DNA from: Escherichia coli
Lineage (GTDB): Bacteria; Pseudomonadota; Gammaproteobacteria; Enterobacterales; Enterobacteriaceae
Reading direction: 5' to 3' (one strand)
Length of the DNA stretch: 64,000 nt
Assembly (NCBI RefSeq): GCF_003018255.1
Contig: NZ_CP027440.1
The stretch's first letter is position 1; every line of letters begins with the position of its first letter. Positions 29,818-57,027 of the stretch are shown here, piece by piece. A program made the translations under genes and the position numbers. Below the pieces are notes generated by a model that was not told the origin of the DNA, ran no database searches, and saw only the letters and a program-made list of their open reading frames with translations.

Positions 29818-30184
29818 TTGCTTTATCCTCCATACTGGACAAAATCATCTGTATTAATGTCGGGCGTGGAGATATACGCATTTCATTAAGCGTCTGAAGG
29901 GCAGCAACAGCTGCCTGTTTATCGGTGCCTTTGGCAATTTCCGCAAGAGAATGCACAATCCATAACGGACTTAACGCCACGACTGAATCCAGAATCATGT
30001 CATCCATAATAATTTCTGACACATCCCGCTTATCACATTCCTTATCCATAAAAGAAACGATTTTTTCCACATCTTCCGGTTTCATGCCTCCGGCGATAAG
30101 AAATTTGCGATACTCATAAGACGATCTTAATTCAATACTCATATTCATCTCCTGTAACTCTGACAAGGACGTGATTTTTCTCAT
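29810..30184 (-). CDS. Hypothetical early protein
   Basis: 124-aa ORF. Confidence 0.5.
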   Translation of the reverse strand: MRKITSLSELQEMNMSIELRSSYEYRKFLIAGGMKPEDVEKIVSFMDKECDKRDVSEIIMDDMILDSVVALSPLWIVHSLAEIAKGTDKQAAVAALQTLNEMRISPRPTLIQMILSSMEDKANE

Positions 30185-30366
30185 TTATGTTTTCCAGTAA
30201 TACGGATATATATGTCGATAAGAAGATTCATAATAAACAGGAAGAGCGACATCCTGATAAAGAACCAAATATCTGGCATCATGGACAGGTTTCCTGTAAT
30301 CGCAAATATAACCCCCCCCCCCAACACCGGAACGAAAATTGCGAAAAATACAAGTCTCTTTATCAT
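30181..30366 (-). CDS. Small two-TM membrane protein containing an 11-nt poly-G tract
   Basis: MIKRLVFFAIFVPVLGGGVIFAI...; C11 run on plus strand at 30312-30322. Confidence 0.5.
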   Translation of the reverse strand: MIKRLVFFAIFVPVLGGGVIFAITGNLSMMPDIWFFIRMSLFLFIMNLLIDIYIRITGKHK

Positions 30367-30914
30367 GGCGTTAACTCCCGTAATACAGCGTCCTCGGCAG
30401 TCCGGCGATGGTGATAAATAAAATTCACCGTACTCTCGGATAATTCAAATTTCTCGCCTATTTCCCGGAAGGTAAGACGTCGTGGTGATTCAGCATCCCG
30501 TAATTCACGAATAAGATGAACATCATCGTCAGGTATACGGGTGAAGGGCAGCAATTCTCCGTATTTTTTCATGCTTACGCCAATATATCGCGCCCGATTG
30601 TGGACAGAATCCCGGTCTCGCCCCAGATATTCTCCTATTTGCTTACCGGTCATCGTTCTGGCATTTTTTCGGATAAATTTATCTTCATCATGTTTAAATC
30701 TTGGACGTTTGCATTTGAGCAACTCCGGGTAAGTACCGCGTAATAAAACAATCCGGTTATGTACACCCCAGAAACTTCTTTTTACCCTGACAGCAATATC
30801 CTTAACCGGGGTGGATGGATAAAGCGCAATCAGCAGCGCATCTTCTTCAGGTGTCCACGCACGGACATGAGCAGGTGCCTGACCTTTTCGCCCCATGGGT
30901 TGTAAAATCATCAT
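30363..30914 (-). CDS. Hypothetical early protein with C-terminal HTH-like segment
   Basis: LTFREIGEKFELSESTVNFIYHHRR helix-turn-helix-like. Confidence 0.5.
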   Translation of the reverse strand: MMILQPMGRKGQAPAHVRAWTPEEDALLIALYPSTPVKDIAVRVKRSFWGVHNRIVLLRGTYPELLKCKRPRFKHDEDKFIRKNARTMTGKQIGEYLGRDRDSVHNRARYIGVSMKKYGELLPFTRIPDDDVHLIRELRDAESPRRLTFREIGEKFELSESTVNFIYHHRRTAEDAVLRELTP

Positions 30915-30917
30915 ACA

Positions 30918-31433
30918 TCACCCCCTGACTCGCTTTTCAGCAGCATAAAACTCATCAGACAGAATTTCGGTCATTTTCTGATTTGCGGGTTTTACGCCGC
31001 ACTCAAGGTAAATCACATCGTCAACGCAGAACCACTTCACAGGGCCAAACATGATTGCCGAGAAATCAATACCCAGCCAGAACAACAGTGCATCGGTTCT
31101 GGCATACGTGACGGGCGAATATTCACGCCACAGACTGTTAAGTTCGTCAGAGGCAACGCGCAGGGCTTTGGGAATACGTGATGTGCGCGGTGTGCAGCTC
31201 CAGCCATTCGACGCAGTCGGTTTTCGCCATAAGTCGCGATGAAAAGGATATTTGTCATCCATAAAGCGCAGCCCTTTAAAACAAAAGCCACTGATACCGG
31301 ATACAAATACCGACCGGCACGCAACATTCAGCACGGCCTCAAGGCGTTTTGCCTCATCCTTAACTTTCTGGCAGTCCTGCTGATATTTTTGCCACGCGGC
31401 CAGCGCGGAAGGGTTTGATGTTTTAAAGAACAT
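30918..31433 (-). CDS. Hypothetical early protein
   Basis: 171-aa ORF. Confidence 0.5.
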   Translation of the reverse strand: MFFKTSNPSALAAWQKYQQDCQKVKDEAKRLEAVLNVACRSVFVSGISGFCFKGLRFMDDKYPFHRDLWRKPTASNGWSCTPRTSRIPKALRVASDELNSLWREYSPVTYARTDALLFWLGIDFSAIMFGPVKWFCVDDVIYLECGVKPANQKMTEILSDEFYAAEKRVRG

Positions 31434-31966
31434 TACGCCACCTCCGCAGATATCCCGGCAGGCGCGGCCGTCCGGTCAACAATCAGGTAACGCAGAACGC
31501 GCGAGGTGATATTCCAGCCGCTTAAACCGCAGATAATGACACCCAGGCGTATGTCGATATACGCCATCACAAACTGGGGCACGCCTTCTTTCATGGCCTG
31601 CTCATCAACTTCAGCCACCACATAAACGGTTTCACAGGTCAGAACGCCCTGAGCAAATTCCCACGCCATTGACGGAATATCATGCCCCTCAATCCACGGC
31701 AGGGATTTTCTGAAGCTGCACCACTGAACATCATCAGCCGCACCTTCCTGGCTGCATTTGCGACGAACCGGCTGCACCGGGCGGGGACGCGGAATATCAT
31801 AAAAACCGTTACATTCCGTCAGCACCCCGGCATCGACCGCATCACGCAGAAAATAAACCATCGAGGATGGCGGCATATTCATTTTTTCAGCCAGAATGCC
31901 GCAGGTCAGACGCCCGTAAATACTCAGCCAGTTTTTAACCCCTTCAAGCACTTTTGCATCAATCAT
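31433..31966 (-). CDS. Hypothetical early protein (possible N-terminal winged-helix)
   Basis: 177-aa ORF. Confidence 0.5.
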   Translation of the reverse strand: MIDAKVLEGVKNWLSIYGRLTCGILAEKMNMPPSSMVYFLRDAVDAGVLTECNGFYDIPRPRPVQPVRRKCSQEGAADDVQWCSFRKSLPWIEGHDIPSMAWEFAQGVLTCETVYVVAEVDEQAMKEGVPQFVMAYIDIRLGVIICGLSGWNITSRVLRYLIVDRTAAPAGISAEVA

Positions 31967-31969
31967 GAA

Positions 31970-32512
31970 TTATTCCTCCGTCAGCGCCACATATTCAGAA
32001 TGTTTAATCTCCTGGCATTCTTCAGGAATACCCCCTTTTATTTCCCTGCCATAAGCGCCTACTTTAAACACCACGCACAGGGCATCACGGGAGAGCGACG
32101 GGGTCCACCAGGAGTCCATGTTAAACATGGAGGGGATTCTCATTACCCCCAGCTTTTCACAGAGCCAGACAAGGAAATCAGGACGCTTTCTTAACTCGCG
32201 TTCAGCGGCTTCAATCATTGCGGCAATCGCCGGTCCTTCAGGGCATGACTCATCAGGTCTGGCAATAAAGCACGGTCCGTCCCCGATAAAAGCCACATCA
32301 TCGCGCTTACGCCAGCCCGCAGGCAGAGCACCAGAAAAATAAAACTCACTGATTACGTCCATGGCAAACGGCTTTAAGCGCAATCCGGCAGCGCCTGTAT
32401 TTTTCAGTAATGCCCGAAGAATACTGTTGCGTAGCGGTAAAACAGTCTGTTGATATTTGGTGAAATATTTATTTGTCTGCACACGGTCTAATTTGAAATA
32501 AAAATATGCCAT
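31970..32512 (-). CDS. Hypothetical early protein
   Basis: 180-aa ORF. Confidence 0.5.
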   Translation of the reverse strand: MAYFYFKLDRVQTNKYFTKYQQTVLPLRNSILRALLKNTGAAGLRLKPFAMDVISEFYFSGALPAGWRKRDDVAFIGDGPCFIARPDESCPEGPAIAAMIEAAERELRKRPDFLVWLCEKLGVMRIPSMFNMDSWWTPSLSRDALCVVFKVGAYGREIKGGIPEECQEIKHSEYVALTEE

Positions 32513-32609
32513 ATATCCTGTTCCTTATTTTCAGTTTACAGGCGCAGGCAGTCCCCTGACGCGAGCGCCATACTTAAAACGATGTGATATTTAAAGATTT
32601 AATGCGGTG

Positions 32610-33140
32610 TTATTTATTCAGTCCGGCGTCCTGTTCAAAAGGCTCGACATAAAAACTTTCAGCGCCTTTATTCACCTTAATACCGGCAATGCCTTTCACT
32701 GCATCCGGCTCCGCCAGGACCGCTTCCTTGTTCACTTCCTCTTTCGTGCGGATGAATCGCTCAAGCCCCATACGGCGCAGCATTTCAATCACACCTTCCA
32801 CATCACGGCTGACGCTGCATGATGGATTTCCCAGCCGCCATGATACTGTTCCGGTGGTCAGATTGGCTGTTTTGGTTTTGCCGCCGTTCGTCAGCTCATC
32901 GCGGTTGGTTTTGCACCAGTCCTGAATCCCCTTAAAAAGCACTTTGATTTCTTTTTTAAGGTTTTCAATCTGCGGCGTATAACGGGCGGTGATTTCTGCC
33001 ACTTCATCATTCATCGCCGTTTCCAGCCGCAGCGCCTCTCGCTGAATATCGCCCAGGGTACGGATATCGCGGCTGACTTCTTCGCGGGTCTGCGGTGCAG
33101 CCTCGGCTGCGGCCTTTAATTTTGTAACACGTTTAGCCAT
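32610..33140 (-). CDS. gam: Gam host-nuclease inhibitor (DNA-end binding)
   Basis: 176 aa, MAKRVTKLKAAAEAAPQTREEVSRDIRTLGDIQRE... matches Mu Gam. Confidence 0.85.
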   Translation of the reverse strand: MAKRVTKLKAAAEAAPQTREEVSRDIRTLGDIQREALRLETAMNDEVAEITARYTPQIENLKKEIKVLFKGIQDWCKTNRDELTNGGKTKTANLTTGTVSWRLGNPSCSVSRDVEGVIEMLRRMGLERFIRTKEEVNKEAVLAEPDAVKGIAGIKVNKGAESFYVEPFEQDAGLNK

Positions 33141-33151
33141 TTTGTTTTTCC

Positions 33152-33445
33152 TTATTGCAGTGTGCCTGATGCTTTATGCACGCGGTGGCGTTTAATGATG
33201 GCATCCGCCCCAAAAGCCTGTACAGATGCCTGAAATTCCGCTGAGAGAAACTGAATAATTTCAGGACTGTGATACTGGAGAATACTTGCATAAACGTCAC
33301 AGAGTGACGTCGGCCTGTTATTCGTATCACGTTCTGTTTTTACATCCACACCAATCTTTTCATGCACTTCAACACAGTCATTGCCTGCCGGTTTTTCGTC
33401 ATGCGAAACATGCTTAAATTCAAAAATAACGCGTACTTTGCTCAT
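33152..33445 (-). CDS. Small hypothetical protein, paralogue A (start MSKVRVIFEFK)
   Basis: N-terminus nearly identical to adjacent gene. Confidence 0.5.
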   Translation of the reverse strand: MSKVRVIFEFKHVSHDEKPAGNDCVEVHEKIGVDVKTERDTNNRPTSLCDVYASILQYHSPEIIQFLSAEFQASVQAFGADAIIKRHRVHKASGTLQ

Positions 33446-33449
33446 GGAA

Positions 33450-33722
33450 TTACCCCTGCTGATTAAATTCATTACCTTTAATAACCCCGGAACGCATGCT
33501 CATATCTTTCATGAGCGCACTGGCTTTCATTGCCACAAGTTCAGCAAAGTCTCTGCTTTCCGCGAGCATAACCACCCCAAAAATCATGGCGGGTCCATCA
33601 CCTTTCTGCTTTATCCCGGTTGAACGTATGTCCAGACTTACCCCCATGCGCACTGTTCCATCAGCGTTTTTATGGATAACGTGCTCCTTGTATTCGAAAA
33701 TAATGCGTACGACTTTACTCAT
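33450..33722 (-). CDS. Small hypothetical protein, paralogue B (start MSKVVRIIFEYK)
   Basis: Tandem diverged duplicate of 33152-33445. Confidence 0.5.
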   Translation of the reverse strand: MSKVVRIIFEYKEHVIHKNADGTVRMGVSLDIRSTGIKQKGDGPAMIFGVVMLAESRDFAELVAMKASALMKDMSMRSGVIKGNEFNQQG

Positions 33723-34000
33723 CCTCTGGTCCTCGTTCTGTTTGGATAACTGACCCGGCGTCTGACCTCACGGCAGAACCGAATCATGGCATTAAAGGCT
33801 TCTTCCTCCGTCACCGCTTCCGGTATCCCCGGAACCAGTAACTGCTCCTGTTCATCACGTCCATGACGCGCCATAACCTCAATCACATGCCGTACCGTGG
33901 CAGGCTTTCCGGCAACTATCGGCAATGCACCTTCCGGCAGGACGTAACCAAACTCAATAAGACCACTCGACCACGCCCATGCAATGAGATTTTTTTTCAC
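33719..34000 (-). CDS. Hypothetical early protein
   Basis: 93-aa ORF. Confidence 0.45.
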   Translation of the reverse strand: MKKNLIAWAWSSGLIEFGYVLPEGALPIVAGKPATVRHVIEVMARHGRDEQEQLLVPGIPEAVTEEEAFNAMIRFCREVRRRVSYPNRTRTRG

Positions 34001-34001
34001 C

Positions 34002-34268
34002 TCACACCTCCCAGTAAACCGTGCAGCCGCTGATGCGGGTGGCCTTCACACGGCGGCGCAGGCCGTTGGTCTGTATGGTGATTTCAATTTCACCGGTTCC
34101 CTGCACGTTGCCTACCGGCGGCGTGGTTTTCAGTGCAAAACGTTGCGGATAGCGCTTACTGCGTTCCAGTACCGCACCGGCAAGTTCGGTCAGACGGCGC
34201 GCGCTGTTCAGGGAGTCGAATAAATTCATTTTGTTACCGCAGGATTGCATATTCATATAACACCTCAT
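34002..34268 (-). CDS. Hypothetical early protein
   Basis: 88-aa ORF. Confidence 0.4.
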   Translation of the reverse strand: MRCYMNMQSCGNKMNLFDSLNSARRLTELAGAVLERSKRYPQRFALKTTPPVGNVQGTGEIEITIQTNGLRRRVKATRISGCTVYWEV

Positions 34269-34496
34269 TTAGCTGACTTGTTTCGCACCAACAGAACGGC
34301 ATATTCCGCTGTAAACGTCTGTCGCACCTTCGCGATCAAGTCCGGCAGATATCACCATTCGTGTGCGGTCATTAAATTCAAAAAGAAAATCGCCACATTC
34401 TTTATTTTCGGCCAGTGAAATCACCTTCACGTTATCGAAATTAACCAGGTAAAAGCGTCCGTAAATATCAGGAATATTAAATACCGCCATAATCAC
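34269..34496 (-). CDS. Hypothetical early protein at kil position (directly after B)
   Basis: 75-aa ORF; position only. Confidence 0.4.
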   Translation of the reverse strand: MIMAVFNIPDIYGRFYLVNFDNVKVISLAENKECGDFLFEFNDRTRMVISAGLDREGATDVYSGICRSVGAKQVS

Positions 34497-35425
34497 ACCT
34501 GTGAGAGTAATTCAGGGTTGGTATAAACCTCTTTAAAGGCCGCATTAATATGTTTTTCTGTCAGCGCCGCGCCTTCACCGCTGGCGGTGAGCCACGCCTG
34601 GTTAAGCGTATGTGTCAGAACGCGTAACGCTCCCGGCTTTTCAGCGATAGCCTGCATGACGGCCAGCTCGGCCTCACCACTGATCCCCCACGCCCTGGCA
34701 ATGGCCAGCACATCCGCCTTTTTGGCCTTGCGAAGTTGTTTTGTACGGGCAAGACGGCTGAACAGGCGCGATAAATCATCAAAGGCGCGGCGTCCACCTT
34801 TAAACAATCCGCGCGGGTTACCAATAAGCACCATCCCGATCCCCGTGGCGTCCTGAATTGCCCGGAGTTGCTCCAGACCGTCAATACCAAGATGATCCGC
34901 CTCATCCACAATCACCAGTCCACGCGTTCCCATCAGGCGACGGCGGATGGCGCGGGATAATGCCCCTTTGTTCGCGCGGGTGTAATCAATCCCCAGCGCA
35001 TCGGCCAGCTCCAGCAGACACTCCGTGACGCTGGAGTGCGCGGGTGACAGGGTGATCATCCAGGTGTTTGGTTGCTCCTGGCAGTAATTACGGGCAGTGG
35101 CCGTTTTACCCACACCCGGTACGCCCACAATAACGTTAATACAGCCCATCAGACGAACCGCCTGAAACAGTGCGCGCAGCTCCTGGACTGTCTGCGTTTC
35201 CACAAACTGCGGCGGTTCCGGCAGTGCGCTTTGTTTATTCCAGTTCTCATACCAGGAACGCAGGGAAGCAGCCACAGCAGCGTTATCGCCTTTATATTTT
35301 CCCTTACGGAAAGCCGATAATGTGCCGTCGGAAATTCCCGCCTCTCTGGCGATGGCATACTGCGTCAGTACGCCGCCATCAATAAGTTCATCAATGGTCT
35401 TGATTACATCGTTAATATCAGTCAT
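34493..35425 (-). CDS. Transposition ATPase B (MuB-like, AAA+)
   Basis: Walker A GVPGVGKT, N-terminal HTH-like region; directly downstream of transposase. Confidence 0.9.
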   Translation of the reverse strand: MTDINDVIKTIDELIDGGVLTQYAIAREAGISDGTLSAFRKGKYKGDNAAVAASLRSWYENWNKQSALPEPPQFVETQTVQELRALFQAVRLMGCINVIVGVPGVGKTATARNYCQEQPNTWMITLSPAHSSVTECLLELADALGIDYTRANKGALSRAIRRRLMGTRGLVIVDEADHLGIDGLEQLRAIQDATGIGMVLIGNPRGLFKGGRRAFDDLSRLFSRLARTKQLRKAKKADVLAIARAWGISGEAELAVMQAIAEKPGALRVLTHTLNQAWLTASGEGAALTEKHINAAFKEVYTNPELLSQV

Positions 35426-35496
35426 ATTATTAACCTCTCATTTGATACCTTGTTTAATCAAATAACCTGAGTCGCCGCTCGGGTTATTTTTTTATT

Positions 35497-37587
35497 TCAG
35501 GCCAGCGGGTCATTTTCTTTTAATTTCGCTTCCAGCAACTGCAATCCCCGCTGGAAATTACGCTCGTATTCTTCATCAGGTTCATCGTCAGCGACCGGTT
35601 GCTGAACGGTCACCGTATTACCCACAGGGCGGTATATGTTTTCCAGCCAGGGCTCCTGCGGCTTGTGCTCCAGCACGTTGACAACCTCATCCTCGGCATC
35701 ACGGATTTTTTCCTCTGCGCGTTTACGCATGCCTTTAAGGCGTTGCTGCTGTTTGTAGTATTCCGCGCTAACCGGGAAGGCTTCGCGTTTATTACCGTCC
35801 CATACCGCCTCGCAAATCACGCTGCCATCCAGGCGACGTACGGTAATTCGTTCGGCATCATGAATGTCATAGCTGATAAGCACCTTACGACCATGCTCGT
35901 CACGCAGCTCGGGCGCGTAGTAAATATTATTCAGCCAGCGTATTTCACAGCGTCTTACAGGGCGTTCCACCATCGGCCGGAACATATCCCGCAGCTCAAC
36001 ATCGGACAGCCATTCAATTTCCGTGTCCTCTTCCGCCAGGCGTTTTTTTCTGAACTCCGCCGGGCTGTAATGCTTGCCGTTCGGCTTCACCGGTAATTCA
36101 TCGTGCGGCCGGTTGTTGTACCACTCAACACCGTCACGAATGGCATCAATCAGTTCAGACCAGGACGGTAAATCACGCATCGCTGACTGCTGCCGGGCGT
36201 TCAGCCGTTTGCCCTGTTGCAGGGCAGTAAATGCCGAGCGTAAATCGCGGTTGGTTTTGCGTAACGTCTCGCGATCTGCACCTTTCCCGAAATAGGTGCG
36301 GTATTTACGGGCTATGCGCATCGGTAATGTGCGGTTAAGCCGTTCGATAATGCCTCGTCCCTGCGGATTACCGGCAATCCCGGTCGGGTGATTAATCCCC
36401 AGTCGCGGCAGTATCCCCACAACCTCCTTATCCAGGATGTCGGCGGTTTCCCCGGAGCCGTTATCCGAGTAATACAGAAACGGTTTGCCGTGATGGCGAA
36501 TGCCGTGCTGTATGGCACCGGCTACGGCGAAAACATTTTCAGCCAGGTCAAGGCTCCAGCCCACCACAAAGCGCGTGCCACCGTCGATAACAAAGGTCAC
36601 TTCCGGTGCAAATGGCCGACCGTGAACCGGGTGTGCGCATTTCAGCTTCATGCCGTGACCGTCACCAATCCAGACATAATTCACCGGCATTCTGGACCAG
36701 TCGCGGCGCGTGAATCCCTCAAGCTGGCGGTATTCACTGCCGGTCACCCGGCCTTTTTGTTTCACCACTTCCGGCAGTTTCTTCATTGCGCGGCGAATGG
36801 TGTCATAAGACGGCATGATATCGAGCATATAAGGCTCATCAGCGTGCCGGTGCTGCCATTCAGCGACAAAATCCTCGTAAGCCTCGGTCATTGGTCGGCC
36901 GTTTGACTGGCGATACTGCGCCAGAAATTCGGGCAGCCAGTTAATATCTTCAGCTTTTATTTCCTGGCGCTTACCCGGTGCCAGTAAAAGCAGGCGTTCA
37001 GCGGCGTTCTGCGCCTTGTTAAAGGCCGCAATCCAGCGTTTCAGCGTTATTTCACTCAACGCACGGCTGTTTCCCTTTTTGGCGTTCGCCGTCTCAACCA
37101 TTGCCACAATGCGCTCGTCCAGTTGCGAACGTGCCAGGTTGTCAACGATAAACCGGATAGCTTTCGCACAGCTGAAACCGGGTTGTTGCGCGACTTTCAT
37201 CACTTCGCTGACGATCGCAATTCGTGCATCAGCCACCTGGCGCTGGTTTTCAGTCAGGGCATTAAGGCGTTCAACCATCAGTTGTGGTGATCCGCGATAT
37301 GCCTCCACCGCATCAACCACGGCAGGCGAGCGTCTGGCCTTTGTCACCACCGGAGCCGGTGATTCATCAGCTTTTTGCGTCATCAGTTGAAGGGCATAAC
37401 GTTCACGCAATACTTGTTGCGCGCCAGAAGGCAAACAATCGATATTAAATTCGATTGCTTTTGTCCCCTTACGTTTGCGTAACATGGCTGCATTTCCCGC
37501 AGCTGCTTTTGTGAGTCGATGGCGAATGTTATGTTCCATCATTGGTAAATCAGGAAGACCAACACATTCTTTTGCTGTTACCCACAT
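35497..37587 (-). CDS. DDE transposase A (MuA-like)
   Basis: 696 aa, N-terminal MWVTAKECVGLPDLP resembles MuA. Confidence 0.9.
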   Translation of the reverse strand: MWVTAKECVGLPDLPMMEHNIRHRLTKAAAGNAAMLRKRKGTKAIEFNIDCLPSGAQQVLRERYALQLMTQKADESPAPVVTKARRSPAVVDAVEAYRGSPQLMVERLNALTENQRQVADARIAIVSEVMKVAQQPGFSCAKAIRFIVDNLARSQLDERIVAMVETANAKKGNSRALSEITLKRWIAAFNKAQNAAERLLLLAPGKRQEIKAEDINWLPEFLAQYRQSNGRPMTEAYEDFVAEWQHRHADEPYMLDIMPSYDTIRRAMKKLPEVVKQKGRVTGSEYRQLEGFTRRDWSRMPVNYVWIGDGHGMKLKCAHPVHGRPFAPEVTFVIDGGTRFVVGWSLDLAENVFAVAGAIQHGIRHHGKPFLYYSDNGSGETADILDKEVVGILPRLGINHPTGIAGNPQGRGIIERLNRTLPMRIARKYRTYFGKGADRETLRKTNRDLRSAFTALQQGKRLNARQQSAMRDLPSWSELIDAIRDGVEWYNNRPHDELPVKPNGKHYSPAEFRKKRLAEEDTEIEWLSDVELRDMFRPMVERPVRRCEIRWLNNIYYAPELRDEHGRKVLISYDIHDAERITVRRLDGSVICEAVWDGNKREAFPVSAEYYKQQQRLKGMRKRAEEKIRDAEDEVVNVLEHKPQEPWLENIYRPVGNTVTVQQPVADDEPDEEYERNFQRGLQLLEAKLKENDPLA

Positions 37588-37597
37588 ACATCCCCCA

Positions 37598-37864
37598 TCA
37601 AGCCACTTCTCTGGCGTCCACCTGGTATCTGCTGGGCCAGATTACAGCAGGTTCAACCCCTATTTTTTCGGCGATGGCGGCTTCGTATTTACGGCACTGG
37701 CGGTAAAACACATTGCGCATTGATCCGCTTTTTAATCCTAACTCCCTTTCCAGTTCAGGGAGGTCTGTGCCTTTGTTTTCAAGGGCTGCATATACCGCTT
37801 TAGCAGACCAGTCACACCCCTCTCGAACAAACAAATTATTCGATGCTTGTCTGGATACCCTCAT
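37598..37864 (-). CDS. ner: Ner-like DNA-binding regulator
   Basis: C-terminal EPAVIWPSRYQ matches Mu Ner. Confidence 0.8.
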   Translation of the reverse strand: MRVSRQASNNLFVREGCDWSAKAVYAALENKGTDLPELERELGLKSGSMRNVFYRQCRKYEAAIAEKIGVEPAVIWPSRYQVDAREVA

Positions 37865-38020
37865 TGTGTGATCCTCTCATGTTTACCTGAACCGATAATC
37901 AAAACCGGTTATCGATTTAGGTAAATCATAATCGCAAAATAATTCGATATCAACGGTTTTTTGCGAGCATATCGAAATTAAATGCGATGTCGATAATTTC
38001 TTTGTTTTATAGGGGGTTAT
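37865..38020. promoter_or_regulatory. Divergent early/repressor promoter-operator region
   Basis: 156-bp gap between divergent ner and repressor genes with repeated TCGATA/TTATCG motifs. Confidence 0.55.
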
Positions 38021-38632
38021 ATGGATAAGGCAGAAAAAACCGTATCCAGTGCGGAACGGTTTATTGATATGGAAGGAATAAACCGATTTTCAGAACGCTT
38101 AGCTATGGCTATGGGAAACATGACAAACGTCGAACTGGCGACCCTTTGTGGACTATCTGAAGCCACAGTAAGAAATTACAGGAAGGGGAAAAACTTCCCT
38201 CCTTTGGATAAACTGGCCTTAATAGCTAAAGCCTGTAATTGTTCACTCGAATGGTTGGCCACAGGCAAGAACGAAGATGAATGCGGAAAAATCGAAAACA
38301 ATTGCGATTCAGGTTCGGGTATTGATCAGGCGCTTAGCTCTCTAAGCCCCCAAGAGAAGCAATTAATCCTTACATTCATCAGGCGAGAAGGTACTAATAA
38401 CCTTGTCAGGCTGGCAGCAATGAATACATCTACAATCAGCCAGGATGCGGTAGAAAGCATCATTGATGCCTTGCCATTACGTCCCGTACTAAAAAATGCA
38501 ATAAAGATAGGAATGGCGGGAAGTGAAGAAACAGACAAAGAGATTTTGCGCGTTATTGAGAAGTACAACTCGAGCAATAACGCCACCCAGGAATCAGGGG
38601 CAGTGACAGTAAAGAAAAATGTTGTTGGTTAA
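38021..38632 (+). CDS. Prophage repressor (c-like, HTH)
   Basis: 203 aa with HTH (VELATLCGLSEATVRNYRKGK), divergent from ner/A/B. Confidence 0.75.
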   Translation: MDKAEKTVSSAERFIDMEGINRFSERLAMAMGNMTNVELATLCGLSEATVRNYRKGKNFPPLDKLALIAKACNCSLEWLATGKNEDECGKIENNCDSGSGIDQALSSLSPQEKQLILTFIRREGTNNLVRLAAMNTSTISQDAVESIIDALPLRPVLKNAIKIGMAGSEETDKEILRVIEKYNSSNNATQESGAVTVKKNVVG

Positions 38633-38778
38633 GCGCCATCGCTATCATGAGGTGGTGCTGTAAATACATATAGAGATCATATGACTCATCCCAAGATAAT
38701 CACGCTATTGAATAGTAATTCATGATGATTATCATACTGATTATAGTTAGATCGATTATGTGAGCATTTTGGCAGTTT

Positions 38779-38812
38779 GAAGATGTTTTGAAGATGTTTT
38801 GAAGAAGATTTT
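38779..38812. repeat. Tandem repeat (gaagatgtttt x2 plus partial third) near left end
   Basis: Direct sequence repetition at 38779-38812. Confidence 0.6.
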
Positions 38813-38828
38813 AAGGGTAAATTAGCAG

Positions 38829-38983
38829 TATCAAATGTGTCGCCGTTTTTTGATCTTTTGACTATTTGTTGAGCAGTCGGTATCAAAAAGAGTTTTCCGT
38901 CCGAAGTATACATCACCTGTTTTATTTCAGCATCTTACAGGTGATTTCACCTCCTTTCACTAAAACCCTTGTCGGTATCAAAT
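38829..38983. repeat. Left-end transposase-binding site cluster (three GTATCAAA repeats)
   Basis: gtatcaaa at 38829, ggtatcaaaaa at 38879, ggtatcaaa at 38974; inverted copies of the right-end sites. Confidence 0.6.
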
Positions 38984-38999
38984 GATTCACCTGGTTACA

Positions 39000-39311
39000 A
39001 ACGATGGATTGATTGATAACCTGCCACAAGGATGTTGCGTGGAAGTAGCCTGTCTGGTTGATGCTAATGGCATTCAGCCGACCAAAGTCGGTACGTTACC
39101 TTCGCATCTGGCCGCCCTGATGCAAACCAACATCAACGTACAGACGCTGCTGACCGAAGCCATTCTTACGGAAAATCGCGACCGTGTTTACCACGCTGCG
39201 ATGATGGACCCGCATACTGCCGCCGTGCTGGGCATTGATGAAATATATGCTCTTGTTGACGACCTGATTGCCGCCCACGGCGACTGGCTGCCAGGCTGGT
39301 TGCACCGTTAA
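39000..39311 (+). pseudogene. melA: melA alpha-galactosidase, 3' fragment downstream of prophage
   Basis: NDGLIDNLPQGCCVEV...DWLPGWLHR* continues the frame broken at 159. Confidence 0.7.
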
Positions 39312-39958
39312 GGGGTAATCGCTTCCGGCGCTCTGGTGATTAAGCCAAAGCGCCGTAGCTGGCGGCAATGAAAGCGAGCGAGGAATATCACCGTCGTTAA
39401 TGCGCCAAGCAGCGCGCAGAACATATCGGATTGCGTGTCCCACTGGTCGCCCTGGGTGCCGAGAAAATCATCCGCTCCCTGACCCATTGCCAGCGCCGCC
39501 CACCACTCGATTAATTCATACATCGCGCTTATCGCCAGCGCCACGCAGCAGACCAGAAACGCCACCATCTTATGTCCGTGAACGTACATCCCGCGCACAA
39601 GGATCTCTCGTGCCACCAGTGCAGGCACCAGCCCCTGGAAAAAATGTCCCAGTTTGTCATACGGATTACGGCTCAACCCCAGCCATTCCTGCACCTCAAA
39701 ACCAACGGGGACTTTCGCGTAGGTGTATTGTCCGCCGACCATCAGGATGATGGCGTGAAAGAAAATGAGCGTATAGAGCAGCGGCGTTAACGGATAACGT
39801 TTAGCGGTGGCAAGCAGTAGCGGCACGACAATAATCACCGGTGTCACTTCCATCAGCCAGGTGAGTTTGTCATTGGCCGAAATGCCGGTATAAATCAGGA
39901 TTAACGTTAGCGCCAGTGCGCCGGTGTTAAGAATTAACGGCTTGAGTGTGCGGGTCAT
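39308..39958 (-). CDS. yjdF: Inner membrane protein YjdF
   Basis: Multi-TM 216-aa ORF at the expected position upstream of fumB. Confidence 0.75.
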   Translation of the reverse strand: MTRTLKPLILNTGALALTLILIYTGISANDKLTWLMEVTPVIIVVPLLLATAKRYPLTPLLYTLIFFHAIILMVGGQYTYAKVPVGFEVQEWLGLSRNPYDKLGHFFQGLVPALVAREILVRGMYVHGHKMVAFLVCCVALAISAMYELIEWWAALAMGQGADDFLGTQGDQWDTQSDMFCALLGALTTVIFLARFHCRQLRRFGLITRAPEAITP

Positions 39959-46063: not shown

Positions 46064-46242
46064 CAGCTTCCTTGTGTGACAAATTTCTTAAGCATTATCT
46101 CTGATGAGGCGGGTAATTCAAAGGGAGTAAGAATGATTGGCATATAGGGGAAGAGACTCTGGCAACGGAAACTGCCAGTGCTGTATGAAGATTCCAGGGC
46201 TATGCTTATAGTGAAAACCATACTGATGAGAGAGGGAAGGTC

Positions 46243-46473
46243 ATGGATCAGGCGCTACTGGACAGGGGTTATCGCTGTTATACCGGCGAAAAGATCGATG
46301 TCTATTTCAACACTGCGATATGTCAGCATTCTGGCAATTGCGTACGTGGCAACGGCAAGTTATTTAATCTCAAACGAAAGCCGTGGATCATGCCGGATGA
46401 AGTCGACGTCGCCACTGTGGTTAAAGTGATTGATACGTGCCCGAGCGGCGCGCTGAAATACCGTCATAAATAA
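46243..46473 (+). CDS. yjdI: Uncharacterised protein YjdI
   Basis: 76-aa Cys-rich ORF. Confidence 0.8.
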
Positions 46474-46484
46474 GCGAGGGTAAA

Positions 46485-46757
46485 ATGGAAATACGCGAAG
46501 GCCACAATAAATTTTACATTAATGACGAACAGGGCAAGCAAATCGCTGAAATTGTCTTTGTGCCGACCGGAGAGAATTTAGCGATTATCGAACATACCGA
46601 TGTCGATGAAAGCCTGAAAGGGCAAGGGATTGGTAAACAGCTGGTTGCGAAAGTCGTGGAAAAAATGCGTCGGGAAAAACGAAAAATTATCCCACTATGC
46701 CCATTTGCGAAACACGAATTTGATAAAACGCGGGAGTATGATGATATTCGCAGTTGA
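46485..46757 (+). CDS. yjdJ: GNAT-family acetyltransferase YjdJ
   Basis: 90 aa. Confidence 0.8.
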
Positions 46758-46983
46758 TGGGAGAGTACAGAGTCACGATATTTTTCATGCTCTCCGCGGT
46801 GTGATGCAGGAGAGCATCTGAAGGGTAGGGGGATGCACAAAGAATGGGCAGAGAGCGCGTTTTTTTGTCCCAAGTCATCCCCTTTACTGAGCAAAAAAAA
46901 GAATATCTCCTATATGAGAATCATCAATCGGGGTTAATAAGTTTTGCGTCCCCAGAGCGTTTAATATTGATAGGAGTCATATT

Positions 46984-47280
46984 ATGGAAGGTAAAAACAA
47001 GTTCAATACTTATGTTGTTTCTTTTGATTATCCATCATCTTATTCCTCAGTGTTCTTAAGGTTAAGATCATTGATGTATGATATGAGTTTCTCCTCTATC
47101 GTGGCTGATGAATATGGGATACCACGACAACTGAATGAAAACTCCTTCGCAATAACGACATCGTTAGCCGCAAGTGAAATCGAAGATTTAATCAGGCTTA
47201 AATGCTTAGACTTACCGGATATTGACTTTGACCTCAACATTATGACAGTTGATGACTATTTCCGTCAGTTTTACAAGTAG
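46984..47280 (+). CDS. ghoS: Type V antitoxin GhoS (endoribonuclease)
   Basis: 98 aa MEGKNKFNTYVVSFDYPSSY... Confidence 0.85.
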   Translation: MEGKNKFNTYVVSFDYPSSYSSVFLRLRSLMYDMSFSSIVADEYGIPRQLNENSFAITTSLAASEIEDLIRLKCLDLPDIDFDLNIMTVDDYFRQFYK

Positions 47281-47307
47281 CCAGGAAGGATAAGAAGAAC
47301 ATAAAAA

Positions 47308-47481
47308 ATGGCACTATTCTCTAAAATATTAATTTTTTATGTGATTGGTGTGAACATATCCTTTGTCATTATCTGGTTTATCTCACATGAGAAAACACAT
47401 ATTCGTTTACTTAGTGCATTTCTGGTCGGAATAACCTGGCCAATGAGTCTGCCTGTGGCATTACTTTTTTCTCTCTTTTAG
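47308..47481 (+). CDS. ghoT: Small membrane toxin GhoT
   Basis: Hand-translated 57-aa ORF MALFSKILIFYVIGVNISFVIIWFISHEKTHIRLLSAFLVGITWPMSLPVALLFSLF. Confidence 0.8.
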   Translation: MALFSKILIFYVIGVNISFVIIWFISHEKTHIRLLSAFLVGITWPMSLPVALLFSLF

Positions 47482-47550
47482 GAGCTGTAGTTGAGTGGAC
47501 CCGCTGGTTATCTTGAAACGAAGCGTCTCTCCTCAAAACTGGATTTGCGG

Positions 47551-47588
47551 AATGACGAACGAAGCAGTCGCCTGACTGCTTCGTTCAT
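47551..47588. terminator. Stem-loop between convergent ghoT and lysU (candidate bidirectional terminator)
   Basis: aatgacgaacgaagcagtc / gactgcttcgttcatt inverted repeat. Confidence 0.4.
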
Positions 47589-47599
47589 TAAAGTGAAAT

Positions 47600-49117
47600 T
47601 TATTTCAGTGGGCGCATCGCCGGGAAGAGAATAACGTCGCGAATAGTATGACTGTTTGTAAACAGCATAATCATTCGGTCGATACCAATACCCAGACCAG
47701 CGGTTGGCGGCAGACCATATTCCAGCGCAGTTACGTAATCTTCGTCATAGAACATGGCTTCGTCGTCACCTGCAGCTTTAGCGTTAACCTGTTCCTGGAA
47801 ACGTTCAGCCTGATCTTCTGCGTCGTTTAATTCGCTAAAACCATTACCAATTTCACGACCACCGATGAAGAATTCAAAACGGTCGGTGATTTCCGGGTTA
47901 ACATCATTACGGCGCGCCAGCGGTGACACTTCTGCCGGATATTCCGTGATAAAGGTTGGCTGAATCAGATGTGCTTCTGCCACTTCATCAAAGATCTCCG
48001 TGACAATGCGTCCCAACCCCCAGCTTTTCTCTACCGTAATTCCGATAGATTCAGCTAATGCTTTAGCAGCATCAAAATTATCCAGATCCGCCATATCGGT
48101 TTCTGGACGATATTTTTTGATTGCTTCGCGCATGGTGAGTTTTTCAAACGGTTTGCCGAAATCAAACACATGCTCGCCATAAGTGACTTTAGTGGTACCC
48201 AGTACCTCTTGTGCCAGAGTGCGGAACAGTGATTCCGTCAGTTCAATCAAATCGTGGTAATCCGCATACGCCATGTAGAGTTCCATCATCGTGAACTCAG
48301 GATTATGACGAACAGAAATACCTTCATTACGGAAGTTACGGTTGATTTCGAATACCCGTTCAAAACCACCTACAACCAGACGTTTCAGATATAGCTCCGG
48401 CGCGATACGCAGGTACATATCTAAATCCAGAGCGTTATGATGGGTAATAAACGGGCGAGCAGATGCTCCACCTGGAATTACCTGCATCATCGGGGTTTCT
48501 ACTTCCATAAAGCCGCGAGCGACCATGAACTGACGGATAGCGGCCAGAATTTTTGAACGGACAACAAACGTTTGACGGGATTTATCGTTAGCGATGAGGT
48601 CCAGATAACGTTGACGATAACGGACTTCCTGATCCTGCAGACCATGGAATTTATCTGGTAAAGGACGTAGTGCTTTAGTCAGCAGGCGCAGCTCAGTACA
48701 GTGAATGGAAAGCTCACCCGTTTGCGTCTTAAACAGCGTACCGCGGGCACCGATAATGTCACCCAGATCCCATTTTTTAAACTGATCGTTATAAACACCT
48801 TCTGGCAGGCTATCTCTTGCAACGTACAGTTGAATACGGCCACCGACATCCTGCAACGTTACAAAGGAGGCTTTCCCCATAATACGACGGGTCATCATTC
48901 GGCCAGCAACCGAGACTTCAATGTTTAAGGATTCCAGTTCCTGGTTATCCTTCGCATCAAACTCTTCGTGCAACTGGTCAGAGGTATGGTCGCGGCGAAA
49001 ATCATTGGGAAACGCCACACCTTGCTGACGTAGTGCCGCCAGTTTTTCGCGGCGATTTCTCAGTTCATCGTTAAAATCAATAGCCTCATTGGCTCCCCGT
49101 GTTTCTCGTTCAGACAT
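47600..49117 (-). CDS. lysU: Lysine--tRNA ligase, heat-inducible
   Basis: Class II aaRS; true start [15 protein letters not shown] at 49117. Confidence 0.9.
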
Positions 49118-49353
49118 TTTGGTTCCTCTAAATCCAGCTTTCAATTTAGCGTAGATAAAGAGACAGATCGGTACACTGTATTATCTGCCTCGACTATTAA
49201 TAACTCAGTTTATCTTATCGAAACTAACGCTTACCTCAAGTTGATATCACTAATAAATAACCATAAAAATGGTTTAAATGACTTATTAATCTCGATTTGC
49301 TAGTGTGATAAACTGAAAGTTAATTTATTCATAACCAATTGTTTTTACGACAG

Positions 49354-56951: not shown

Positions 56952-57027
56952 TGGTGCCCGGACTCGGAATCGAACCAAGGACACGGGGATTTTCAATCCC
57001 CTGCTCTACCGACTGAGCTATCCGGGC
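56952..57027 (-). tRNA. pheU: tRNA-Phe (GAA)
   Basis: Reverse complement is GCCCGGATAGCTCAGTCGGTAGAGCAGGGGATTGAAAATCCCCGTGTCCTTGGTTCGATTCCGAGTCCGGGCACCA. Confidence 0.97.

Follow-up and report, generated by a model that had tools for sequence, protein, structure and literature searches.

The ghoS–ghoT toxin–antitoxin gene pair between yjdJ and lysU in an Escherichia coli chromosome

Gene content and layout of the locus

The stretch of Escherichia coli DNA analysed here (64,000 nucleotides of contig NZ_CP027440.1, assembly GCF_003018255.1; in the following, the window) contains two small, adjacent plus-strand genes that correspond to the type V toxin–antitoxin pair ghoS and ghoT. The first of these, ghoS (formerly YjdK; 46984–47280), extends from an ATG at 46984 to a TAG ending at 47280 and encodes a protein of 98 aa that is assigned as a Cas2-like endoribonuclease antitoxin. 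The second, ghoT (formerly YjdO; 47308–47481), extends from an ATG at 47308 to a TAG ending at 47481 and encodes a hydrophobic membrane toxin of 57 aa. Upstream of ghoS lies yjdJ (46485–46757), a member of the GNAT family, while downstream of ghoT the lysU locus is occupied by a convergent, minus-strand gene for a lysyl-tRNA synthetase (47600–49117). The resulting gene order dcuS-yjdI-yjdJ-ghoS-ghoT-lysU-dtpC-cadA matches that of both K-12 and E. coli strain 104 and is annotated in K-12 NCM3722 as dcuR-dcuS-yjdI-yjdJ-ghoS-ghoT-lysS(lysU locus)-dtpC-cadA. An adjacent, same-strand pair with the antitoxin gene first, located between yjdJ and lysU, is thus found as in the type V GhoT/GhoS system. 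The first-pass annotation had placed both genes between yjdJ and lysU, and open reading frames are indeed present at these coordinates with the flanking genes as named. It had also stated that the toxin falls below the cutoff of the ORF track, which agrees with the default limit of 60 aa as compared to the 57 aa of GhoT. The value of recording ghoST at this site is accordingly one of annotation hygiene, given that a 57-aa toxin gene is easily overlooked under common ORF-length cut-offs.

For the neighbouring synthetase gene, RefSeq/PGAP uses the name lysS in both comparison genomes despite its lysU position beside dtpC and cadA. Its mechanically called ORF (47600–49144 of the window, minus strand) begins with a TTG at 49144 and comprises 514 aa, while the annotated 505-aa protein starts at the ATG at 49117.

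The intergenic region between yjdJ and ghoS (46758–46983, plus strand, 226 nt) presumably harbors the ghoST promoter and the 5′ leader, and an AGGAG Shine–Dalgarno motif is located at 46972–46976, that is, 7 nt ahead of the ghoS ATG. A consensus promoter scan of 46700–47700 returned no plus-strand sigma-70 site within this spacer; the nearest sigma-70 consensus site (46720–46748) is situated inside the end of yjdJ. The spacer between ghoS and ghoT (47281–47307, plus strand) measures 27 nt, is purine-rich (AGGAAGGATAAGAAGAA) and supplies the ribosome-binding region of ghoT. Downstream, in the gap separating ghoT from the convergent lysU gene, a perfect 13-bp hairpin is encoded at 47557–47586 (no strand assigned), which reads GAACGAAGCAGTC-GCCT-GACTGCTTCGTTC. 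Folding of the RNA of the 139-nt stretch 47482–47620 gave a minimum free energy of −47.1 kcal/mol (z = −3.09). The hairpin is not followed by a U-run and was not called by the consensus terminator scan, which detected no canonical intrinsic terminator within 46700–47700; it is possibly a structure shared by the ends of the ghoT and lysU transcripts. When the whole window was scanned against Rfam at gathering thresholds, no RNA family was recovered in or antisense to ghoST, and the only hit was a tRNA-Phe at 56955–57027.

Relationship to the K-12 module and identity of the encoded proteins

A base-by-base comparison with the K-12 strain NCM3722 across 46200–47650 revealed no indels. Within ghoS, five SNPs were found, four of which are synonymous (R26, L50, L72, and D81), while the fifth exchanges Asn35 for Ser (N35S). 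This is the only amino-acid difference from K-12 in the whole module, as the single SNP in ghoT (47421; F38, TTC to TTT) is synonymous and the GhoT protein is 100 % identical to its K-12 counterpart. The 27-nt spacer between both genes is unchanged, and the remaining differences are two SNPs in the 226-nt yjdJ–ghoS spacer (46789 and 46799) and three in the 118-nt spacer downstream of ghoT. The module therefore shares with K-12 GhoT/GhoS the locus, the protein lengths of 98 and 57 aa, the intervening spacer, the distribution of GCU sites (three in ghoS, none in ghoT), and the fold of the antitoxin (TM 0.91), with protein identities of 100 % for GhoT and 99 % for GhoS. It differs from it by N35S, five synonymous coding SNPs, and the intergenic SNPs mentioned above. 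That the pair is intact, as had been claimed beforehand, is borne out by this alignment: neither gene shows a frameshift, an indel or a premature stop, and their divergence from K-12 at the protein level amounts to one conservative substitution.

In E. coli strain 104 (NZ_CP029164.1), the 863 bp spanning the module are 100 % identical. There are no differences at all in 46200–47650, and strain 104 hence carries the same S35 allele, although 22 SNPs occur across the surrounding 7.9 kb. RefSeq names the ghoS product of this strain 'type V toxin-antitoxin system endoribonuclease antitoxin GhoS' (WP_001317561.1) and its ghoT product 'toxin GhoT' (WP_001173343.1), in agreement with the earlier description of the pair as a known module.

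At the family level, GhoS matches Pfam PF11080 with 136.8 bits (cut-off 21; E-value 2.4e-40) over profile positions 6–93 of 94, and 97 of its 98 residues are identical to those of the PDB entry 2LLZ ('Uncharacterized protein yjdK', which is GhoS), Asn35 to Ser again being the sole difference. A scan of GhoS and GhoT against NCBIfam yielded no family at E ≤ 0.01, and the naming of both proteins thus rests on Pfam, on identity to the PDB entry and to K-12, and on how RefSeq annotates identical DNA. The AlphaFold2 model obtained for the window GhoS (mean pLDDT 81.7, pTM 0.73) superposes on 2LLZ with a TM-score of 0.91 and an rmsd of 1.8 Å. It consists of strands at residues 8–15, 54–59, and 83–88 with two short ones at 39–41 and 47–49, and of helices at 21–33, 63–76, and, C-terminally, 89–96. 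The best PDB matches of this model after 2LLZ are almost all Cas2 proteins (TM ≈0.45–0.54, probability 0.96–1.0). GhoS has been described as a structural homologue of Cas2 with which it has five catalytic residues in common, R28 being the most important one (PMC4010927). R28 as well as L25 and M31 are present in the window protein and invariant among 12 aligned homologues, so that both the Cas2-like ferredoxin fold and the catalytic R28 of type V GhoS are retained.

The likeness to Cas2 is one of fold only (TM ≈0.5). Sequence identity between Cas2 proteins and GhoS is 9–20 %, GhoS was solved as a monomer (according to the title of the 2LLZ entry), and it acts on the mRNA of a toxin rather than in spacer integration. 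A Pfam search with GhoS at E ≤ 0.01 returned PF11080 and no Cas2 family, and the genes next to ghoS are yjdJ and ghoT, with no cas1 or CRISPR array alongside. Membership of GhoS in the Cas2 family was rejected on the grounds of the missing Cas2 Pfam match and the missing cas1/CRISPR linkage.

GhoT, in turn, matches Pfam PF10753 (Toxin_GhoT_OrtT) with 90.4 bits (cut-off 22.1; E-value 8.9e-26). The peptide is strongly hydrophobic (GRAVY 1.50), with hydrophobic segments at about residues 2–26 and 32–57 and a polar loop, H27-E28-K29-T30-H31-I32-R33, between them. Both I21 and F38 are retained, and the window peptide hence has the features of the family, namely small size, two hydrophobic segments, and F38. 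Exchange of the latter residue in F38R abolishes the toxicity of GhoT (PMC4344625).

Taken together, sequence comparison makes it very probable that the locus is the ghoST operon of the E. coli chromosome itself, an intact orthologue of the founding type V toxin–antitoxin system. At this level the designation 'intact' holds; the module is already known, and there is nothing unusual about it.

Proposed mechanism, the S35 allele, and alternative readings

The GhoT/GhoS pair (YjdO/YjdK) of E. coli K-12 was introduced as a type V system by Wang et al. 2012, as cited in PMC4010927. In K-12, GhoT harms the inner membrane and reduces ATP, while GhoS cleaves the ghoT mRNA and does not bind the toxin; MqsR attacks the ghoS message in preference and leaves the ghoT mRNA unharmed (PMC4344625, PMC4905990, PMC3905216, PMC4010927). 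By analogy, the adjacent, same-strand ghoS and ghoT genes of the window would form a bicistronic operon with the antitoxin encoded first. GhoT, a 57-aa peptide with two predicted helices in the inner membrane, would damage this membrane and lower ATP levels, giving rise to slow growth or 'ghost' cells. The stable endoribonuclease GhoS with its Cas2 fold would normally cut the ghoT mRNA, again with no binding of the toxin itself, and only little GhoT would be made. Once active, MqsR, which is a type II toxin and an RNase with specificity for GCU, would cut the ghoS portion of the transcript and spare ghoT, thereby tipping the balance towards the toxin. As the proteins are 99–100 % identical to those of K-12 and ghoT differs by one synonymous base, GhoS presumably neutralizes GhoT by cleavage of its mRNA here as well. 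More generally, we infer the RNase activity of S35 GhoS, the toxicity of GhoT, co-transcription, and control by MqsR from work on K-12. The mqsRA genes do not map close to ghoST and lie outside the 64-kb window; they are presumed to be encoded elsewhere in the genome.

The GCU motif, which is the favoured cleavage site of MqsR, is missing from the ghoT mRNA of K-12 (PMC4344625, PMC4905990, PMC3905216), an mRNA that belongs to a group of just 14 in E. coli devoid of the motif (PMC4344625, PMC4905990, PMC3905216, PMC4010927). In the window, ghoS contains three plus-strand GCU (GCT) triplets starting at 47104, 47196, and 47204 (span 47104–47206), and ghoT contains none as compared to 2.1 expected from its composition, which is the distribution described for the type V GhoT/GhoS cascade. 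None of the SNPs relative to K-12 falls inside the three triplets. All sequence features needed by the MqsR model are thus present.

An alternative reading is that the genes are intact and yet do not act in vivo as a switch triggered by stress; GhoS might, for instance, serve mainly as a housekeeping RNase for other mRNAs with ghoT being near-silent, and the MqsR cascade might be physiologically irrelevant. Such a scenario draws on several published observations. GhoS was reported to lower the levels of some 20 further transcripts from purine/pyrimidine metabolism (PMC4010927, PMC3905216), and some ghoST-positive E. coli strains do not possess mqsRA (PMC7232551). [quoted passage not shown] This dispute is about the family's biology, however, and has no bearing on whether the ghoST annotation is correct. 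Against this reading, both genes are near-universally kept in E. coli with unchanged spacing, the zero GCU triplets of ghoT versus the three of ghoS fit selection for differential cleavage, and ghoT expression was found to respond to acid and to intramacrophage conditions in other strains (PMC7232551). On balance, we regard the absence of a switch function as rather unlikely, and the operon is preferably read as the intact orthologue of K-12 ghoST.

A second point to be considered is the GhoS allele. Codon 35 (47086–47088, plus strand) reads AGT (Ser) in the window and AAT (Asn) in K-12, owing to the SNP at 47087. In the GhoS model, residue 35 is placed in a loop, two residues beyond the helix 21–33 that bears R28, L25, and M31. 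This vicinity deserves attention, as the conservative double exchange L25I/M31L in that helix suffices to broaden the specificity of GhoS and to turn it into the toxic protein ArT (PMC4010927). The GhoS surface near residue 35 is therefore functionally sensitive. Moreover, few genomes carry the allele. A perfect match to the 61-mer surrounding codon 35 was obtained for 73 of the 5293 complete E. coli genomes (≈1.4 %), and all others differ by at least one base. One might accordingly suppose that the pair is intact but its antitoxin altered by N35S, being either weaker or directed at a wider range of RNA targets, which would set the module apart from K-12 ghoST. Several lines of evidence speak against this. 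The exchange of Asn for Ser is conservative in that polarity is kept, residue 35 is modelled in a loop and hence outside the helix, and N35 is not among the positions that recurred in a toxicity screen of GhoS, which were D15, M31, E43, and N85 (PMC4010927). Across the 12 mostly full-length sequences of our shallow alignment, position 35 varies, being mostly N, with H in one homologue of 77 % identity and S in the window protein, whereas R28, L25, and M31 are invariant. The underlying homologue search in a large protein database retrieved 45 proteins, solely from relatives at the level of Escherichia/Shigella and many of them fragments. Finally, the S35 allele is no private mutation, as it has been maintained in at least 73 complete genomes. 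An altered antitoxin is consequently very unlikely. S35 is a natural minority variant of GhoS, and the N35S polymorphism is most likely neutral. There is a slim chance, slightly smaller still, that S35 might shift the substrate range or the efficiency of GhoS and result in a differently tuned ghoST switch in this lineage.

The identity of the toxin gene likewise had to be weighed, since open frames of this size can arise by chance in AT-rich DNA. At the local composition (36 % GC, stop-codon probability 0.068), the chance of an open frame is about 0.001 for 98 codons and about 0.018 for 57 codons. Length alone is therefore insufficient proof of ghoT, and the matter is settled by the Pfam match and the 100 % identity to K-12 GhoT. 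Another candidate is the orphan paralogue OrtT (YdcX), which belongs to the same Pfam family (PF10753), likewise comprises 57 aa (PMC4344625), and is a two-helix membrane peptide with F38. It differs in being only 63 % identical to GhoT, in having no adjacent antitoxin, in not being neutralized by GhoS, and in an mRNA reported to contain two GCU sites. The window gene has a neighbouring antitoxin gene, is not limited to about 63 % identity, and contains no GCU. That the 57-codon frame at 47308–47481 is a chance ORF, or OrtT instead of GhoT, is thus ruled out for practical purposes by its protein product, which is fully identical to that of K-12 ghoT with a single synonymous SNP in the gene, its start 27 nt after ghoS at the position of K-12 ghoT, and the lack of GCU.

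Distribution, base composition, and the remainder of the window

In a search of 5426 complete E. coli genomes with the 863-bp ghoST query, matches were obtained in 5342 (≈98 %), and in 5264 of these they extend over 80 % or more of the query. Nearly all are single chromosomal copies with 95–99 % identity, and ghoST is hence a near-universal feature of the E. coli core genome. In line with this, a published comparison found that K-12, HS, CFT073, and NRG857c all carry the module at this position (PMC7232551). Three of the 5376 matches are plasmid-borne, and 84 of the 5426 genomes gave no match; in NZ_CP100922.1, nucleotides 1–47 of the query are all that is left. These plasmid copies and missing matches indicate that ghoST is occasionally lost or relocated.

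With 36.0 % and 34.5 %, respectively, the GC contents of ghoS and ghoT are well below that of the window (51.4 %). Both genes lie in an AT-rich trough at 46850–47600, in which 300-nt windows have 35–39 % GC versus 45–52 % in the neighbouring genes. Such a composition may point to horizontal acquisition of ghoST in the distant past, even though some 98 % of E. coli genomes carry the module today.

Downstream of cadC, at the position of pheU, a tRNA-Phe gene (anticodon GAA) is encoded on the minus strand at 56952–57027 (56955–57027 according to Rfam). pheU is a frequent integration site of genomic islands; in the window, no island appears to be inserted at the tRNA-Phe position. The long minus-strand frames that follow the tRNA gene have sizes that fit the order yjdC, dsbD, dcuA, aspA, which we take to be that of K-12.

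Elsewhere in the window, a 38.8-kb Mu-like prophage (160–38999) interrupts melA about 8 kb upstream of ghoST. The term 'host' used for ghoST in the first-pass annotation is apt in this respect, and ghoST marks its surroundings as ordinary E. coli core chromosome, unlike the prophage. melA is split in such a way that its 5′ part stops at 159 and its 3′ part restarts at 39000. The tetranucleotide AACG is found at both junctions (156–159 and 39000–39003) and may be read either as a perfect 4-bp duplication or as a 5-bp duplication of the Mu type with one mismatch. Additionally, the sequence TTTGATACCG is common to both prophage ends, at equal distance from the tips. Genes recognized within the prophage include those for a protein with a Mu transposase C-terminal domain (35497–37587, minus strand), a MuB-like AAA+ protein (34493–35425, minus strand), and a CI-type repressor (38021–38632, plus strand). 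The portion 30000–39000 of the window shows 96.6 % identity (81 % aligned) to a region designated 'inserted Bacteriophage Mu-like phage' in the Stx2c phage record LC727881. Among the 5426 complete E. coli genomes, no sequence extends across the junction 38999/39000 itself.

Beyond the prophage, the interval from melA to yjdF (39000–39958 of the window) lacks melB. The 3′ end of melA (stop codon at 39309–39311) instead overlaps the end of yjdF (39308–39958, minus strand, DUF2238) by 4 nt. Most genomes split the melA–yjdF query into two places, in agreement with a location of melB between both genes as in K-12. A melA–yjdF junction with no prophage is found in some E. coli, for example, in strain E04, where it is 99.7 % identical.
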